Positions 4,119-62,660 of a stretch of DNA of 64,000 bases are shown piece after piece. Both the position numbers and the translations under genes were made by a program. The notes beneath the pieces are model-generated. The model worked only from the letters and a program-made list of their open reading frames with translations. It searched no databases and had not been told where the DNA came from. Positions within the stretch are counted from its first letter, which is position 1. Every line of letters starts with the position of its first letter. Source of the DNA: Candidatus Schekmanbacteria bacterium (GTDB lineage: Bacteria > SZUA-182); the NCBI GenBank assembly GCA_016235675.1, contig JACRJN010000131.1:1779-65778 (forward strand), given 5' to 3'.

Positions 4119-4165
4119 GTAGGGTGGGCTGCGCCCACCATTTTGATGGGCACAGCCCACCCTAC
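4119..4165. repeat. R-D doublet: GTAGGGTGGGC TGC GCCCACC ... GGGCACAGCCCACCCTAC
   Basis: Two inverted GTAG-anchored hairpins, starting 7 nt after the ntpA stop. Confidence 0.9.
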
Positions 4166-20484: not shown

Positions 20485-21495
20485 ATGGAAGGACAAACAT
20501 TAAGCTTGGCAGCGCATTTGCGGGACGAGCAAAAAAAGAATCCCAAAATCACCAATGGATTGATTAGTTTGTTGGGCGAGATGGCCTCAGCGTCCAAAGC
20601 TATTTCCCGCGACGTTAACCGGGCGGGATTGGTGGGTATTCTGGGACTGGCCAACAAGGTCAATGTCCAGGGGGAGGAAGTAAAAAAACTGGACGAATAC
20701 TCCAATGAGATCGTCAGAGCGCAGATGAGCAAAAGCGGGCAGGTTTGCATCATGGCCTCGGAGGAAGTCGATAACTCCATGCCGGTCGATGAGGGCTGCG
20801 AAGGCCCGTATACCATTGCCTTCGATCCGCTGGACGGCTCATCCAATATCGACGTGAACGTCAGTATCGGCACCATCTTCTCTATCCATCACAAGATCAG
20901 CCCCGGCACAAAGGGAACCGATGATGATTTGCTGCAACCGGGCAATAAGCAGGTCTGCGCAGGCTACGTACTGTACGGCTCAAGCACCATGCTGGTCTAT
21001 ACCGCGGGCTCTGGTGTACACGGCTTTACCCTGGATCAGGGCGTGGGCGAATTCTATCTGTCCCATCCCAACATGCAGATCAAGCCCAAGGGGGATATTT
21101 ACAGCATCAACGAGGGGAACTACCTCTATTGGGACAAAAACACCCAAAAATATATCGACTACCTGAAGGCCGAAGACAAGGCCACCAAGCGGCCCTATAA
21201 GGCGCGCTATGTCGGATCACTGGTGGCCGATTTCCACCGCACCCTGATCTACGGCGGCTTGTTCCTCTACCCCATGGACTACAAAGACCCGCAAAAGCCC
21301 AAGGGCAAGCTGCGCCTTCTATACGAAGCCGCACCCATGGCCTACGTCGTCCAGCAGGCCGGAGGCTACGCCAGCACCGGTTTTGAAGCGATCCTGGATA
21401 TTAAACCGACCGGACTGCATCAACGGGTGCCGCTAATCATCGGCAGCGTGGAGGATGTGAAGCAGGCGGAGAAATTTATTCAGAGGAAGGCGTAA
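20485..21495 (+). CDS. fbp: Fructose-1,6-bisphosphatase class 1
   Basis: 336 aa. FDPLDGSSNIDVN, GYVLYGSSTMLV and LRLLYEAAPMAY motifs. AGGAGG RBS upstream. Confidence 0.93.
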   Translation: MEGQTLSLAAHLRDEQKKNPKITNGLISLLGEMASASKAISRDVNRAGLVGILGLANKVNVQGEEVKKLDEYSNEIVRAQMSKSGQVCIMASEEVDNSMPVDEGCEGPYTIAFDPLDGSSNIDVNVSIGTIFSIHHKISPGTKGTDDDLLQPGNKQVCAGYVLYGSSTMLVYTAGSGVHGFTLDQGVGEFYLSHPNMQIKPKGDIYSINEGNYLYWDKNTQKYIDYLKAEDKATKRPYKARYVGSLVADFHRTLIYGGLFLYPMDYKDPQKPKGKLRLLYEAAPMAYVVQQAGGYASTGFEAILDIKPTGLHQRVPLIIGSVEDVKQAEKFIQRKA

Positions 21496-21540
21496 GAGTT
21501 CATTGTAAATCTATTAAATTTTTGGTAGAATTGTATTTTA

Positions 21541-21575
21541 AAAGGAGGCGTTGATTGACGCCTCCTTTTATTTAT
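21541..21575 (+). terminator. Rho-independent terminator after fbp
   Basis: AAAGGAGGCG TTGATTGA CGCCTCCTTT followed by a T-rich TATTTAT. Confidence 0.7.
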
Positions 21576-21592
21576 AGGGGCGAAAATTCTAT

Positions 21593-21815
21593 TAAGACGT
21601 AGCGCAGGGCTTTAGCCCCAATACTGTTCCCCTAACGTAGCGCAGACCTTTAGGTCTGCTCCGGAGTGCTCACAAAGCCACCCCATAAGCAGGGATAGAA
21701 GCCCTGCGCTACGTCTTAAGTGAACGGTATTGGCTTTAGCCCTGCTTCCGGACACACATCAAACCCGGTAGCCGGTAGCAGACCTAAAGGTCTGCACTAC
21801 GTTAGGGGAACAGTA
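21593..21815. repeat. R-A element whose first hairpin is interrupted by a second R-A element
   Basis: GTAG at 21599. The host hairpin GCAGG GCTTTAGCCC TGC is split. The right end is GCAGACCTAAAGGTCTGCACTAC (to 21800) plus GTTAGGGGAACAG. Confidence 0.85.
21619..21732. mobile_element. 114-nt R-A MITE-like element (TIR CAATACTGTTC.../...GAACGGTATTG) with a 10-bp target duplication
   Basis: GCTTTAGCCC at 21609..21618 and 21733..21742. Removing the element plus one duplicate restores the canonical hairpin GCAGGGCTTTAGCCCTGC. Confidence 0.8.
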
Positions 21816-21826
21816 AAGGGGCGGCT

Positions 21827-22093
21827 ATGACTAAATCAGCTTTATTCTCTTATCTTGAAGGATATAAGCTGGCTGATAAAATCATTAAAAAGGAAAAAAA
21901 ACAGCGGCTTTCTCAAATGACGTTTGAAGAATCCTTGCTTGAGTTTAATAACCTTTGCCTAACCTGGGAATCAGTTTCCAACAAAGAAGGAATGGATAAT
22001 TTGGAAAAGCGAAAAATTACCTTCCTTATCGAACAAAGAGCTCGCTTAGATAAAGCCGGCAGCCGGAAAGTGAAAAATGAATCAATACGCTAA
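21827..22093 (+). CDS. Hypothetical small protein, partner of the downstream nucleotidyltransferase-fold gene
   Basis: 88 aa. 17-nt overlap with the next ORF. No recognisable motif. Confidence 0.45.
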   Translation: MTKSALFSYLEGYKLADKIIKKEKKQRLSQMTFEESLLEFNNLCLTWESVSNKEGMDNLEKRKITFLIEQRARLDKAGSRKVKNESIR

Positions 22094-22652
22094 AGCTATC
22101 GATGAATTGCATGAATTTTTTGACCGGGAGGGAATATCTTATGCCATTATTGGAGGCATTGCTCTACAATATTGGGGAGAGCCTCGTTTTACCAGAGATA
22201 TAGACGTCACCGTTCTGGTTGATTTAGGTAAAGATGAAATAATCCTGCAAAAAATTCTTTCTGTATTCACGCCCCGCATCTCTGATGCCTTGAAATTTGC
22301 CCTGCAAAATCGTGTTTGTTTGGTTAGAAGCCGGGATGGGATCGAAATAGACATTTCTCTGGGTATTCCCGGATACGAAGAGAAAATGATGGGGCGTACG
22401 GTAGAATGTAATCTGGGCGGCAGCTATAATGTTAAGATTTGCTCGGCGGAAGACCTGATCATTCATAAAGCCGTCGCCGGAAGACCGCAGGATTTAGCTG
22501 ATATTGAGAGCATAATAATGCGCCAGGGTGAAAAATTGGATGAAGCATATATCCGTTTTTGGTTGGATGAGTTTTCTCTCTTGCTTGAAACCAAAGAAGT
22601 ATTGGAGCGGTTCGAAAATCCCTGGCGGCGGTTGCTTGGGGAAGATGAATAA
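22077..22652 (+). CDS. Nucleotidyltransferase-fold protein (AbiEii/MNT-like)
   Basis: IIGGIALQYWGEPRFTRDIDVTV matches the G(G/S)..(n)..D.D NTase signature. Confidence 0.5.
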   Translation: MNQYAKAIDELHEFFDREGISYAIIGGIALQYWGEPRFTRDIDVTVLVDLGKDEIILQKILSVFTPRISDALKFALQNRVCLVRSRDGIEIDISLGIPGYEEKMMGRTVECNLGGSYNVKICSAEDLIIHKAVAGRPQDLADIESIIMRQGEKLDEAYIRFWLDEFSLLLETKEVLERFENPWRRLLGEDE

Positions 22653-26971: not shown

Positions 26972-27031
26972 GTAGTCCCAGCCCTTCAGGGCTGATCTTC
27001 CAGGGCTAAAGCCCTGGCACTACGGCTACGG
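26972..27031. repeat. R-B doublet: GTAGTCCCAGCCCTTCAGGGCTG ... CCAGGGCTAAAGCCCTGGCACTAC(GGCTACGG)
   Basis: Lies between two 47-nt direct copies of the gene junction (26899..26945 and 27052..27098). Confidence 0.9.
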
Positions 27032-43476: not shown

Positions 43477-43557
43477 GTAGCGTTGGGGTTTATCCCCAAC
43501 ATTGCGGACGCAGGAGATACCCCTACGTAAAAAGCGGGGGATAAACCCCCGCGCTAC
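43477..43557. repeat. R-G doublet
   Basis: GTAGCGTTGGGGTTTATCCCCAAC...GCGGGGGATAAACCCCCGCGCTAC. Confidence 0.9.
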
Positions 43558-55399: not shown

Positions 55400-57136
55400 A
55401 TGTCCATAAACAAACCTAAAAATTGGGATTTTTACCCCCCGAATCCCGAATTGCAAAAGAAACTCCAATCGGAATTAGGGATAAAATCCCGATTGGCCGA
55501 TCTGATGATCAACCGCGGCATCGAAACCGTCGCCGACGCCGGGATTTTTTTATGGGGGACTTTAGCGGAATTACACAGCCCATTTATCATGAAAGGGATG
55601 ACCACCGCCGCCGGAATCATTCTTAACGCCGTCCGGCAAAAAGATAAAATCTGTGTTTACGGGGATTACGACGTCGATGGATTAACCGGTGTGGCTTTGC
55701 TGTTCAAAACCCTGAGTTCGCTCCAGGCCGACGTGATCTTTTACATCCCCCACCGGCTGGAAGAAGGTTACAGCCTGAATTGTCAGGCGCTGGACGAGAT
55801 CAAAAACGCCTCCGTCAATTTAATCGTAACCGTGGACTGCGGCATCACCTCCTGCAACGAAGTCAATTACGCCAATAAATTGGGGATGCAGGTAATTATC
55901 AGCGACCATCATCAATTGGGAAATAATCTGCCTGCCGCCGCGGCCATTCTCAATCCCTTACAACCCGGATGTCCCTATCCTTTTAAAAAACTGTCCGGCG
56001 TAGGTATTGCCTTGAAATTAGCGCAGGCCATATTGGCGCAATCCGGTTTAATCCGCGAGGCGGCTGATCTTTTAAATAATGATTTGGACCTGGTAGCCCT
56101 GGGAACAATAGCCGATATGGTACCTTTAATGGGGGAAAACAGGATTTTAGTAAAATATGGTCTTAAACAATTGACAAATTCCTCCAAATCAGGTATAAAA
56201 GCATTAAAGCAGGTTACAGGTCTGGCTATTGACCAGGAAGTTAGCGTAGTAGACGTAGCATATAAGCTAGCCCCCCGGTTAAATGCCACCGGCAGAATGA
56301 GCGACCCTCAGCAGGGGTTGGAACTGCTGGTATCCAATAACGACACTGAAAGCGCTAATCTGGCTAAGCAAATAGAAGAAAACAATGTTCAGCGCAAAGC
56401 TATCGAAGGGATAATCCTGGAACAAGCCAGGACGCAATTGCAGCAAGCTATCGAGAACAACGCTCCGCCAAAAGCGATTATTTTAGCGGCCGAGGGCTGG
56501 CATATCGGCGTAATCGGAATCGTCGCCTCCCGCATAGTGGAAGAGTATTTCCGCCCGACGATCATTATCGGGCTTACATCGGGTGTCGGCAAAGGTTCAG
56601 GCCGAAGTATCCGTAACTTGCACCTGCAGCAAGTTTTATTGAAATGTCAGGATTTACTGCTGGAGTTCGGCGGCCATGAAATGGCGGCGGGCTTGAGTAT
56701 TCTGGAAGAAAATATACCCCGGTTCAAAGAGCGCATCAATCAACTGGTGGAAGATTCTTTACAGGAAAACGACTTTATACCCAGCTATAATCTGGACGGC
56801 GTGGTGGAATTAAAAGAGCTGACCTTGTCGTTTTGGCAGGAAATACAATTAATGGAGCCGTTCGGCATAGGCAATCCGGCGCCGTTATATTGTGCACGCC
56901 ATTTAGAAATAATGCCGCCGCTGCGCTTAGTGGGCAATAACCATTTAAAATTGAAGCTCAGGCAAAACGACCTGACTATGGAAGCCATCGGTTTTAATAT
57001 GGGAGATTGGCTCTCATTTTTAAATACTCCGGGCAATAAATCGATAGATGTGATTTTCCGCCCCCAGTTGAATGTCTGGCAAGGCAAAGAGCAATTGCAA
57101 TTGTCCCTGCAGGACATAGTGCAGACCAGGGATTAA
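55400..57136 (+). CDS. recJ: Single-stranded-DNA-specific exonuclease RecJ
   Basis: VYGDYDVDGLTG, TVDCGI and ISDHH (DHH) motifs, and GGHEMAAG (DHHA1). ATG at 55400. Confidence 0.93.
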   Translation: MSINKPKNWDFYPPNPELQKKLQSELGIKSRLADLMINRGIETVADAGIFLWGTLAELHSPFIMKGMTTAAGIILNAVRQKDKICVYGDYDVDGLTGVALLFKTLSSLQADVIFYIPHRLEEGYSLNCQALDEIKNASVNLIVTVDCGITSCNEVNYANKLGMQVIISDHHQLGNNLPAAAAILNPLQPGCPYPFKKLSGVGIALKLAQAILAQSGLIREAADLLNNDLDLVALGTIADMVPLMGENRILVKYGLKQLTNSSKSGIKALKQVTGLAIDQEVSVVDVAYKLAPRLNATGRMSDPQQGLELLVSNNDTESANLAKQIEENNVQRKAIEGIILEQARTQLQQAIENNAPPKAIILAAEGWHIGVIGIVASRIVEEYFRPTIIIGLTSGVGKGSGRSIRNLHLQQVLLKCQDLLLEFGGHEMAAGLSILEENIPRFKERINQLVEDSLQENDFIPSYNLDGVVELKELTLSFWQEIQLMEPFGIGNPAPLYCARHLEIMPPLRLVGNNHLKLKLRQNDLTMEAIGFNMGDWLSFLNTPGNKSIDVIFRPQLNVWQGKEQLQLSLQDIVQTRD

Positions 57137-57138
57137 GG

Positions 57139-57265
57139 TTCACTTAAGACGTAGCGCAGGGCTTTAGCCCTGCTTATGGCGGCTTTGGTAGGCACTCCGG
57201 AGCAGACCTAAAGGTCTGCTCTACGTTAAGTGAACAGTCTGCGCTACGTTAAGTGAACAGTATTG
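57139..57265. mobile_element. R-A MITE-like element at the recJ/cytochrome junction (left TIR lacks its first 8 nt; right end partly duplicated)
   Basis: TTCACTTAAGACGTAGCGCAGGGCTTTAGCCCTGC...GCAGACCTAAAGGTCTGCTCTACGTTAAGTGAACAGT CTGCGCTACGTTAAGTGAACAGTATTG. Flanked by GGATTAAGG at 57130..57138 and 57266..57274. Confidence 0.75.
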
Positions 57266-57288
57266 GGATTAAGGAGGGGTTTGGGGGA

Positions 57289-59774: not shown

Positions 59775-59829
59775 CAGGACAGGCGTCCCGCCGGAAATTA
59801 TAAAATATTGTAGGGGCGGGGGTTTCCCC

Positions 59830-59966
59830 CAATGCTGTTGACTTAAGACGTAGCGCAGGGCTTTAGCCCTGCTTAAGACGCGGCATTTGACCCCTGTGGC
59901 TGTAGCAGACCTAAAGGTCTGCGCTACATAAACATCAAAACAAAATTCCTTAAGTCAACAGCATTG
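59830..59966. mobile_element. 137-nt R-A MITE-like element (TIR CAATGCTGTTGACTTAAGACGTAGCGCAG / ...CTTAAGTCAACAGCATTG) inserted in the loop of a GTAG hairpin
   Basis: 11-bp direct duplication GGGGTTTCCCC at 59819..59829 and 59967..59977. The host hairpin GTAGGGGCGGGGG TTT CCCCGCCC spans 59810..59981. Confidence 0.8.
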
Positions 59967-59996
59967 GGGGTTTCCCCGCCCTTTAATTAACTTAAG

Positions 59997-60521: not shown

Positions 60522-61490
60522 ATGAAAATAATCTTTTGTGGCACGCCGGAATTTGCCCTCCCCAGCTTAAATACCCTACTGACGTCCAAACATCAGGTTT
60601 TGGCGGTGATTACCCCACCCGATCGCCCCGCAGGCCGGGGTAAAAAGCTCAAACCCTCTGCAATTAAGGAAGCCGCCTCAACTCATAATTTACCCATCTT
60701 GCAGCCGGGAAAAATCGGATCGGCGGATTCGCTGGAAAGCATGCGGCAATTGAATCCCGACGCCTTGGCAGTTGTCGCCTTCGGACAACTTCTCCCCCCC
60801 CCGGTACTGAATTTACCCCGCTACGGATGCATCAATGTCCATGCCTCCCTGCTTCCCAAATACCGGGGAGCGGCTCCCATCAATTGGGCGATCATCCGGG
60901 GGGAAACCCAAACCGGGGTCTGCACCATGCGGCTGGATAAAGGGATGGACACCGGCGATGTTATCTTATGCAAGGCTGTCGATATTAGGTCGGAGGAAAC
61001 CGCCGGAACATTACACGACAAGCTGGCCCCGCTGGGCGCGCAATTATTAGCGGAAACATTGGATCAGATCGAAGCGAATACCGCGCTTTATCATCCTCAA
61101 GACCATAACTCGGCCACCTATGCGCCGCTCTTGGATAAATCGATTACCATCATCGACTGGAAACAAAGCGCCGAACAAATCGACTGCCTGGTGCGCGGGT
61201 TAAATCCCTATCCCGGAGCAAAAACATTTTTGGACGATCTGCCGCTGAAAATTCTTACGGTGGAAATCAGCAAGCTAGCTAGCCCGGCCCTACCGGGACA
61301 AATAATTCAGCAAAATCGACGGCAGGGAATTTTAGTCGCGACAGGCAGCGCTCCCATTTGGCTGAAAACAATTCAGCCGGCCAACCGCCAGCCTATGACC
61401 AGTGGCGATTTTCTTTCCGGATTGCGTGAGTCTTTAATAAATAAGGAATTCCGTAGTCCCAGCCCTTTAGGGCTGAATCTCCAGGGCTAA
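60522..61490 (+). CDS. fmt: Methionyl-tRNA formyltransferase
   Basis: 322 aa. MKIIFCGTPEFA, INVHASLLPKYRGAAPI (SLLP) motif. The last ~12 codons and the stop lie inside an R-B doublet. Confidence 0.93.
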   Translation: MKIIFCGTPEFALPSLNTLLTSKHQVLAVITPPDRPAGRGKKLKPSAIKEAASTHNLPILQPGKIGSADSLESMRQLNPDALAVVAFGQLLPPPVLNLPRYGCINVHASLLPKYRGAAPINWAIIRGETQTGVCTMRLDKGMDTGDVILCKAVDIRSEETAGTLHDKLAPLGAQLLAETLDQIEANTALYHPQDHNSATYAPLLDKSITIIDWKQSAEQIDCLVRGLNPYPGAKTFLDDLPLKILTVEISKLASPALPGQIIQQNRRQGILVATGSAPIWLKTIQPANRQPMTSGDFLSGLRESLINKEFRSPSPLGLNLQG

Positions 61491-61504
61491 AGCCCTGGCA
61501 CTAC
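61453..61504. repeat. R-B doublet overlapping the fmt 3' end
   Basis: GTAGTCCCAGCCCTTTAGGGCTG AATCT CCAGGGCTAAAGCCCTGGCACTAC. The fmt stop TAA is in the second loop. Confidence 0.9.
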
Positions 61505-62292: not shown

Positions 62293-62660
62293 GGGGGCGA
62301 CTGGTTTCGACGGGGCTATTGAACCTCCAACTGCATGTCGAGCATTCTACTGACTCGTAAATCCGGTGGAAAAACAATAAACGCAAACTACTATGGCGAA
62401 AGCCAATTAGCTTTAGCCGCCTAATTAGTGCGGCTTCGTCCACCCTGCTTCGCTGATGGAGCGGGATGTGGGCGGCATATACATCAGATAGCGGATCCGC
62501 TTCGCCTAAGGGCGGACGAGCGAAACTACACTTTGGCTGGCCTTTCTTTGATCCTGCCGCCGGGAGCGGAAAGAGGCGAGAAACAATCCAGCGGCTAAAC
62601 ATGTAGAAGTTGCCGGCAAGGTACTCTCGGACGCGGGTTCGATTCCCGCCGCCTCCACCA
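62293..62660 (+). ncRNA. ssrA: tmRNA (SsrA)
   Basis: 5' GGGGGCGACTGGTTTCGACGGGG. 3' GGACGCGGGTTCGATTCCCGCCGCCTCCACCA. Acceptor stem pairs GGGGGCG with CGCCTCC and includes G3:U. Candidate tag ORF GCA AAC TAC TAT GGC GAA AGC CAA TTA GCT TTA GCC GCC TAA at 62383..62424 (ANYYGESQLALAA). Confidence 0.95.

Follow-up and report, generated by a model that had tools for sequence, protein, structure and literature searches.

A nested pair of MITE copies downstream of fbp

The region between fbp, which encodes fructose-bisphosphatase, and a gene for an 88-aa product was examined as part of a 64-kb stretch of Schekmanbacteria DNA that was analysed as a whole (the window). This region is occupied by two copies of one MITE family, the one lying inside the other (Table 1). 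The fbp product is 100% identical to a protein from a Candidatus Schekmanbacteria MAG. A hairpin belonging to fbp itself is located at 21539-21570; a simple terminator scan covering 21300-22000 recorded no terminators by its T-run rule. Immediately downstream of the nested pair, at 21827-22652, the 88-aa ORF overlaps a gene for an AbiEii-type nucleotidyltransferase toxin, and the two likely constitute a type IV toxin-antitoxin pair; the right end of the host MITE lies directly against the ribosome-binding site that precedes the 88-aa ORF. When the window was searched against Rfam at the gathering threshold, only the tmRNA gene was matched (62293-62660; tag peptide ANYYGESQLALAA).

Table 1. Positions of the MITE copies, their parts and the hairpins related to them (window coordinates, except where a locus outside the window is named)
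Feature	Position	Strand	Sequence or remarks
Sister MITE copy, 112 nt	16000..16111	+	AT-rich site; degraded duplication GATCTAATCA vs AATTTAATCA, 8/10
Hairpin doublet without terminal inverted repeats, REPIN-like unit	16890..16946	+	
Host MITE copy, left part	21581..21618	+	Eroded left terminal repeat, GTAGC head, 5' arm and loop of REP hairpin
Host copy, left terminal repeat, eroded	21581-21598		CGAAAATTCTATTAAGAC; outer part gone
Host copy, GTAGC head	21599-21603		
Target-site duplication, left, 10 bp	21609..21618	.	GCTTTAGCCC
Nested MITE copy	21619..21732	-	114 nt; inverted relative to host copy; intact 18-nt terminal inverted repeats
Nested copy, terminal inverted repeat	21619..21636	+	CAATACTGTTCCCCTAAC; 3 mismatches to pattern CAATACYGTTSACTTAAG
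Nested copy, hairpin 2	21642..21659	-	GCAGACCTAAAGGTCTGC on element strand
Nested copy, hairpin 1, variant form	21689..21707	-	GCAGGGCTTCTATCCCTGC on element strand
Nested copy, terminal inverted repeat	21715..21732	-	CAATACCGTTCACTTAAG; 0 mismatches to pattern CAATACYGTTSACTTAAG
Target-site duplication, right, 10 bp	21733..21742	.	GCTTTAGCCC; followed by TGC
Host MITE copy, right part	21743..21818	+	TGC (last 3 nt of split hairpin), spacer, second hairpin, CTAC head, right terminal repeat
Host copy, second hairpin	21778-21795		GCAGACCTAAAGGTCTGC
Host copy, right terminal repeat	21801-21818		GTTAGGGGAACAGTAAAG
Sister MITE copy	57139..57265	+	Between recJ stop codon and ribosome-binding site of next gene; GGGATTAAGG at 57129-57138 and 57265-57274
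Duplication of 59830 copy, 11 bp	59819-59829 and 59967-59977		GGGGTTTCCCC
Sister MITE copy, 137 nt	59830..59966	+	Terminator-like hairpin GGGGCGGGGGTTTCCCCGCCC after sigma-54 activator gene
Hairpin empty site	L108		AACCCCGCTTAGGCGGGGTTTTTT
Hairpin empty site	L117		AAAAAGCCCCGCACCCGCGGGGCTT
Hairpin empty site	L128, full IS		AAGGCCGCTCGGAGGCGGCC
Hairpin empty site	L133, ISAeme15 in pAZ186_1		AAAGCCCGGTTCAGACCGGGCTTTTTTTT
Hairpin empty site	L134		CCCGCTTCGCGGGG

An earlier note on this DNA had described a hairpin split by a 114-nt unit and flanked by 10-bp repeats. All of its coordinates held when 21400-22000 was re-read and scanned for repeats. The string GCAGG-GCTTTAGCCC ends at 21618, directly before the nested copy, and the direct repeat around this copy is unambiguous over 10 nt and extends to 11 nt (GGCTTTAGCCC) when the final G of the right end is included. 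Removal of 21619-21742 in silico yielded GCAGGGCTTTAGCCCTGC, the hairpin found in identical form at 16023, 16896, 57156, and 59855, so that the canonical hairpin is restored exactly, as had been claimed. The interior of the nested copy holds a GTAG-headed hairpin pair, and the copy as single-stranded DNA was predicted to fold at -24.2 kcal/mol (z = -5.0). The 18-nt end pattern CAATACYGTTSACTTAAG matched the window 7 times, compared with 0.06 matches expected from shuffling; the motifs for hairpins 1 and 2 matched 18 and 12 times, with 0.06 and 0.03 expected, respectively. By our own arithmetic, the prior for an exact 10-nt direct repeat abutting both element ends is about 1e-6. The insertion at 21619-21732 is a genuine element-in-element with a target-site duplication, beyond what chance would produce.

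Given that the nested arrangement was seen in one assembly, a join of two separate repeat copies during assembly was also considered. The MAG is repeat-rich, and an independent short-read contig (Logan L104) that is 100% identical from 21766 onward breaks at that position, inside the host copy and short of both junctions. Mis-joins fall inside shared repeat sequence, however, and would not yield a complete unit together with an exact 10-bp duplication and a restored canonical hairpin; moreover, 59830 and other genomes show the same signature. We therefore consider an artefact highly improbable.

BLAST and pattern searches recovered 5 MITE copies with terminal repeats in the window, at unrelated loci, with elements of 112-137 nt. 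All 5 share one architecture: a terminal repeat, (A)CGTAGC, hairpin 1 (GCAGGGCTTTAGCCCTGC), a variable spacer, hairpin 2 (GCAGACCTAAAGGTCTGC), GCTACG, and a terminal repeat. The second case that the earlier note had placed near 59810..59981 proved to be real, with the element at 59830-59966, GGGGTTTCCCC on both sides, and the whole lying inside the hairpin GGGGCGGGGGTTTCCCCGCCC. The 57139 copy stands before a gene for a multihaem cytochrome, and the duplicated GGGATTAAGG holds the TAA stop and part of the ribosome-binding site; recJ and the cytochrome gene thus both keep their signals. The outer 8 nt of the left end of this copy are missing, yet its duplication is perfect, and a tandem duplication affects the final ~27 nt of the copy (57220-57265). 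In a relative (L131; 74% protein identity), the order recJ-cytochrome-sigma-54 activator is kept, recJ and the cytochrome gene lie ~11 nt apart, and neither MITE nor REP was found over 21 kb. Because the recJ-cytochrome junction of this relative has no element, insertion of the 57139 copy is supported.

Whether the nested copy is younger than its host, a question that the earlier note had also raised, was answered by aligning the copies and counting substitutions from the consensus. Over 84 conserved positions, the nested copy has ~4 differences from the family consensus and the host copy ~13. Both ends of the nested copy are intact and its duplication is perfect; in the host copy, the left end is eroded and the duplication is 9/10 at best. 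The right end of the host is 93% identical to the corresponding end of the nested copy over 46 nt. On the grounds of its fewer consensus differences, intact ends, and perfect duplication, the nested copy is the younger of the two. Small repeats inserted in one another are likewise known from the pneumococcal MITEs BOX, RUP, and SPRITE (PMC10969869), although the element families and transposases differ from those of the window MITE.

Terminal repeats of the IS4 subgroup

Elements of the IS4 subgroup are characterized by ends of the form '-AATR--------WTW----', direct repeats of 10-13 bp, and a size of 1400-1650 bp (PMC2266710 Table 1). In the intact end CAATACCGTTCACTTAAG of the nested copy, positions 2-4 read AAT, position 5 is R, and positions 14-16 read TTA, in agreement with the IS4-subgroup end signature, and the duplications of 10 bp (21619 copy) and 11 bp (59830 copy) fall within the IS4-subgroup range. 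When the window MITE end was compared with those of E. coli K-12 IS4 (TAATGCCAGTCAGTTAAG / TAATGCCGATCAGTTAAG; 12-bp duplication), 14/18 positions agreed with the right end; agreement with an ISAeme15-like full-length IS was 16-17/18 (16/18 for CAATACCGTTCACTTAAG against its right end).

Searching IMG/VR with the 18-nt end pattern yielded 24 loci, most of which are real elements and not chance matches; at 10 of these 24, inverted end pairs 121-206 bp apart mark MITEs. A full-length IS with these ends was also present (L128:4852-6281, 1430 bp). Its 445-aa product matched NCBIfam transpos_IS4_1 (NF033592, E 9e-82) and the Pfam domains Nterm_IS4 and DDE_Tnp_1, contains the motif YHERWEIELGYRDIK (Y-2-R-3-E-6-K, YREK), and is 38% identical to IS4 InsG. 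This IS shares 99.7% identity with an ISAeme15-family element annotated in E. coli plasmids, and further full-length ISs with these ends were found in E. coli plasmids (L133, which is ISAeme15 in pAZ186_1, and L134). The source sequences of the full-length ISs with matching ends are Proteobacteria-type and not Schekmanbacteria, and tblastn detected no IS4-type transposase gene within the 64-kb window. Judged by its ends, the window MITE is an unnamed repeat family of the candidate phylum Schekmanbacteria that is best placed in the IS4 subgroup of the IS4 family. With IS4 and other members of this subgroup (e.g. ISAeme15) it has in common the end signature, duplications of 10-12 bp, and insertion into hairpins; it differs from these ISs in being 114 nt long and free of a transposase, in its interior of a REP-type hairpin doublet, and in its Schekmanbacteria host. 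Another locus with IS4-type ends (L120:5432-6737) is a 1306-bp cassette whose sole gene encodes a 344-aa CoiA-nuclease-like protein, with no transposase; it is a putative MIC-like passenger cassette of the IS4 subgroup.

The end sequence and a GGG(N)5CCC target had also suggested an IS231-type element, that is, a MIC231-like cassette with the IS231A consensus as its insertion site. GGGGTTTCCCC matches this consensus exactly and GGCTTTAGCCC at 5/6 positions, and for IS231A the palindromic target GGGNNNNNCCC with an 11-bp duplication is on record (PMC2577343 Table 1). The window MITE also resembles MIC231 and other IS231-derived cassettes of the Bacillus cereus group in being non-autonomous, with IS4-family ends and presumably mobilised in trans, and in having duplications of ~10-12 bp and palindromic targets (GGG(N)5CCC for IS231A). 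However, the window MITE ends start with CAAT and lack the 5'-CAT signature of IS231 (CAT-------AA--TAA---), whereas the IS4-subgroup signature fits; the full-length relatives carry Nterm_IS4 and the above-mentioned similarity to InsG; and the duplications GGGATTAAGG, CCGCTTAGGCG, and CGCTCGGAGGCG do not fit GGG(N)5CCC. The window MITE is, in addition, much smaller than MIC231 and has no passenger gene. The idea of an IS231-type element was dropped, and we regard an IS231-subgroup origin as very unlikely.

The split hairpin as a REP module

A palindrome preceded by a GTAG head, as in GTAGCGCAGGGCTTTAGCCCTGC, is the format of REP sequences (PMC2817692 Table 1). In the 64-kb window, 49 GTAG-headed perfect hairpins of at least 6 sequence classes were counted, often as inverted doublets, an unusually rich REP repertoire for one genome (e.g. 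at 4119, 6868, 8251, 26972-27023, 28236, 43477-43557, and 61453-61504). Hairpins 1 and 2 of the MITE are two REP variants in inverted orientation with compensating stem differences, and they pair together in the DNA fold; they thus form a REPIN-like doublet. The doublet at 16890-16946 has no terminal repeats, which shows that the hairpin pair can occur without the MITE ends.

REP sequences are normally lineage-specific. The exact 24-mer CGTAGCGCAGGGCTTTAGCCCTGC, which occurs in the window at 16018-16040, 16891-16913, 57151-57173, and 59850-59872, was found at more than 100 places in representative genomes, usually in similar doublets; the hosts include MAGs labelled Acidobacteriota/Vicinamibacterales, Desulfobacteraceae, Actinomycetota, the PVC group, Nitrospirota, Gemmatimonadaceae, and Brocadiales. 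Over 697 kb of REP-bearing loci in these other phyla, IS4-type ends near the REP were essentially absent, and the IS4-type ends and the REP doublet are therefore separate modules. The split hairpin is a generic REP module carried by the MITE family, and not private to it. A literal literature search for the REP sequence gave no relevant match.

The sharing of an exact REP across phyla is more unusual than the nesting itself, and the same is true of the REP doublet at 16890-16946, which lies in frame within leuS (16335-18923, minus strand), the gene for leucyl-tRNA synthetase. Between its catalytic and anticodon-binding domains, the leuS product contains a stretch of 52 residues; the corresponding stretch in solved LeuRS structures is 16 residues long. 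This arrangement is reminiscent of the in-frame palindromic elements of Rickettsia.

The same REP doublet was also observed between other long inverted arms, TTTGAGTGTAACCTTTTT...AAAAAGGTTACACTCAAA or GAGACCTTTGCATAAGT...ACTTATGCAAAGGTCTC, in Desulfobacteraceae and other deltaproteobacterial MAGs (L009, L040, L041, L045, L059, L069, and L080) as well as at L017, L042, L070, and L091. These sequences suggest that REP doublets may repeatedly end up within other MITE-like shells. Two further loci (L036 and L072) contain tandem direct arrays of REP units with a period of ~37-38 nt.

The GTAG-headed REP doublet in the interior also raised the question of whether a RAYT or an IS200/IS605-type single-strand mechanism had put the unit into the hairpin loop. 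Consistent with such a mechanism, a tblastn search with E. coli RayT identified in L097 a partial Y1_Tnp (RAYT-like) gene (1-402, E 2e-11, HUH motif HVHLLV), and the exact REP 24-mer lies at 431-454, ~30 nt past the end of this gene, together with a BIME-like array of related hairpins. This locus was the sole RAYT link found for the CGTAGCGCAGGGCTTTAGCCCTGC REP. When ORFs near the REP were clustered across 101 loci in search of a shared RAYT, only a TetR family came out. Neither mechanism is known to make a target-site duplication, and a duplication is present here; IS4-type inverted repeats, not REP heads, delimit the inserted unit; and no Y1 transposase or RAYT was found in the 64-kb window. 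Taken together, these findings leave a single-strand mechanism with very little credibility. The window hairpins do resemble REPs and REPIN doublets with RAYTs in the GTAG head and palindrome, inverted pairing, compensatory stem differences, and abundance; what defines the mobile unit in the window, however, are DDE-type inverted repeats and duplications, and REPINs have neither.

Target sites and the origin of the nesting

The empty site was reconstructed for every element with these ends (n = 13 events), and its stability was ranked against the 30-nt windows of its own source. Eight of the 13 empty sites were in the top 2% or better of the stablest windows, and the two hairpin events of the Schekmanbacteria window ranked at 0.5% (21619) and 0% (59830). 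Most of these eight are terminators composed of an A-run, a GC stem-loop, and a T-run, with the duplication centred on the loop. Duplication lengths among elements with these ends were 10, 11, 11, 12, 12, 12, 12, and 11 bp. At L108, L117, L128, L133, and L134, the duplication comprises the loop and 3-4 bp per arm, its centre lying within ~1 nt of the dyad.

The earlier note had spoken of loop-tip insertion, a wording that the data do not support. The duplication spans the loop and ~3 bp of each stem arm, again with its centre within ~1 nt of the dyad, and the cuts were thus staggered, 10-12 bp apart. Such a footprint across the hairpin is the signature of a DDE transposase and not of insertion at a loop tip.

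Because elements and ISs with the same ends lie mostly inside GC-rich hairpins in unrelated genomes, hairpin targeting is a property of the transposase lineage. There are exceptions to this preference: no strong hairpin is found at the 57139, 16000, L102, or K-12 IS4 copies, and only 2 of the 5 window copies are in hairpins. Of the others, one lies at a stop/RBS junction and one in an AT-rich site, and the nature of the last site is unclear. The targeting of REPs by the IS4 family has been published, with 10/10 copies of ISRm22 and 3/11 copies of IS4 (in Shigella) located in REPs (PMC1525189), and a "spectacular" specificity for target arms has been recorded for IS4-subgroup elements (PMC2266710). 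Insertion within REP palindromes is shared by the window MITE with ISRm22, IS1397/ISKpn1, ISPpu9/ISPpu10, ISPa11, and IS621 (PMC1525189). These are full ISs, whereas here it is a MITE that inserts, into a REP carried by another MITE. ISRm22 belongs to the IS4 family, IS1397/ISKpn1 to the IS3 family, and ISPpu9/ISPpu10, ISPa11, and IS621 to the IS110 family. IS3 and IS110 elements use other chemistries, with short or no duplications.

We conclude that 21619-21732 is very probably an IS4-subgroup MITE with a REP-type hairpin doublet, and that its nesting is a by-product of a hairpin-preferring transposase acting on a MITE that carries hairpins. An IS4-type DDE transposase, encoded elsewhere in the genome, would bind the 18-bp terminal inverted repeats CAATRCYGTTSACTTAAG and, as IS4-family biology suggests, excise the element. 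Integration then uses staggered cuts, spaced 10-12 bp, on either side of the dyad of a palindrome rich in GC, and gap repair duplicates the loop and ~3 bp per stem arm; the duplications and the reconstructed empty sites bear this step out. In the present case the captured palindrome was the REP hairpin GCAGGGCTTTAGCCCTGC, which belongs to a copy of this MITE family that is older and partly eroded and lies downstream of fbp. The nesting would hence arise from two things, namely a preference of the lineage for hairpin or terminator-like targets and the circumstance that the MITE family happens to carry such hairpins.

A stronger reading is that the family is adapted to target itself, each member carrying its own transposase's preferred landing pad and nesting beyond the general preference for hairpins. 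The earlier note had read the locus as self-targeting, with the family using its own hairpins as landing sites. One nested event among the 5 copies in 64 kb is indeed real; the invaded hairpin GGGCTTTAGCCC resembles the other hairpin target, GGGGTTTCCCC; and IS4-type ends with a GTAG-headed hairpin pair recur in an unrelated metagenome contig (L102). However, MITEs carry ~10 of the window's 49 REP hairpins, which gives a ~20% chance that an insertion into a REP lands in a MITE, and one nested insertion is thus unremarkable. In other genomes, elements with the same ends enter unrelated terminators. Given that the event is single (only 1/5 copies in the window is nested) and that the REP hairpin is generic, the term self-targeting is an over-reading, and an adaptation of this kind seems unlikely.

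The preferred reading, a hairpin-seeking transposase and a hairpin-carrying MITE, explains the odd split hairpin with its 10-bp repeat as the normal footprint of an IS4-type transposase lineage. The nested insertion is ordinary behaviour of such a transposase, with no new mechanism and no special self-targeting system. Across distant bacteria, both IS4-subgroup elements and their MITEs appear to favour hairpins of terminators and REPs as targets, which is of use in the annotation of such insertions and in the prediction of polar effects on the termination of transcription. MITEs that carry hairpins will also give rise to nested repeat clusters that break short-read assemblies.

A further idea, which we hold to be unlikely, is that an IS4-type MITE captured a REPIN. 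The resulting chimeric element might be moved both by a DDE transposase, through its inverted repeats, and by a RAYT, through its REP heads, and its copies would seed landing pads for the DDE transposase; if so, the landing pads seeded by each copy would lead to self-reinforcing nested growth. The exact end-plus-core pattern had 0 matches in the GTDB representative genomes, and a gapped version of it matched, in JGI metagenomes, only two near-identical contigs (L102 and L103). These contigs (metagenome Ga0163147/Ga0163148), from a high-GC organism, contain a 114-nt MITE (L102:415-528) with the same IS4-type ends, a different GTAG-headed hairpin pair (GTAGCACGGGGGCTCGTCCCCCGTGC / GCAGGGGACAAGCCCCTGCGCTAC), and the duplication GGGTTAAG(G/T)C. 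In these contigs the combination of ends and REP doublet is thus repeated around another REP sequence, and this recurrence hints that the combination has been selected and is not accidental.
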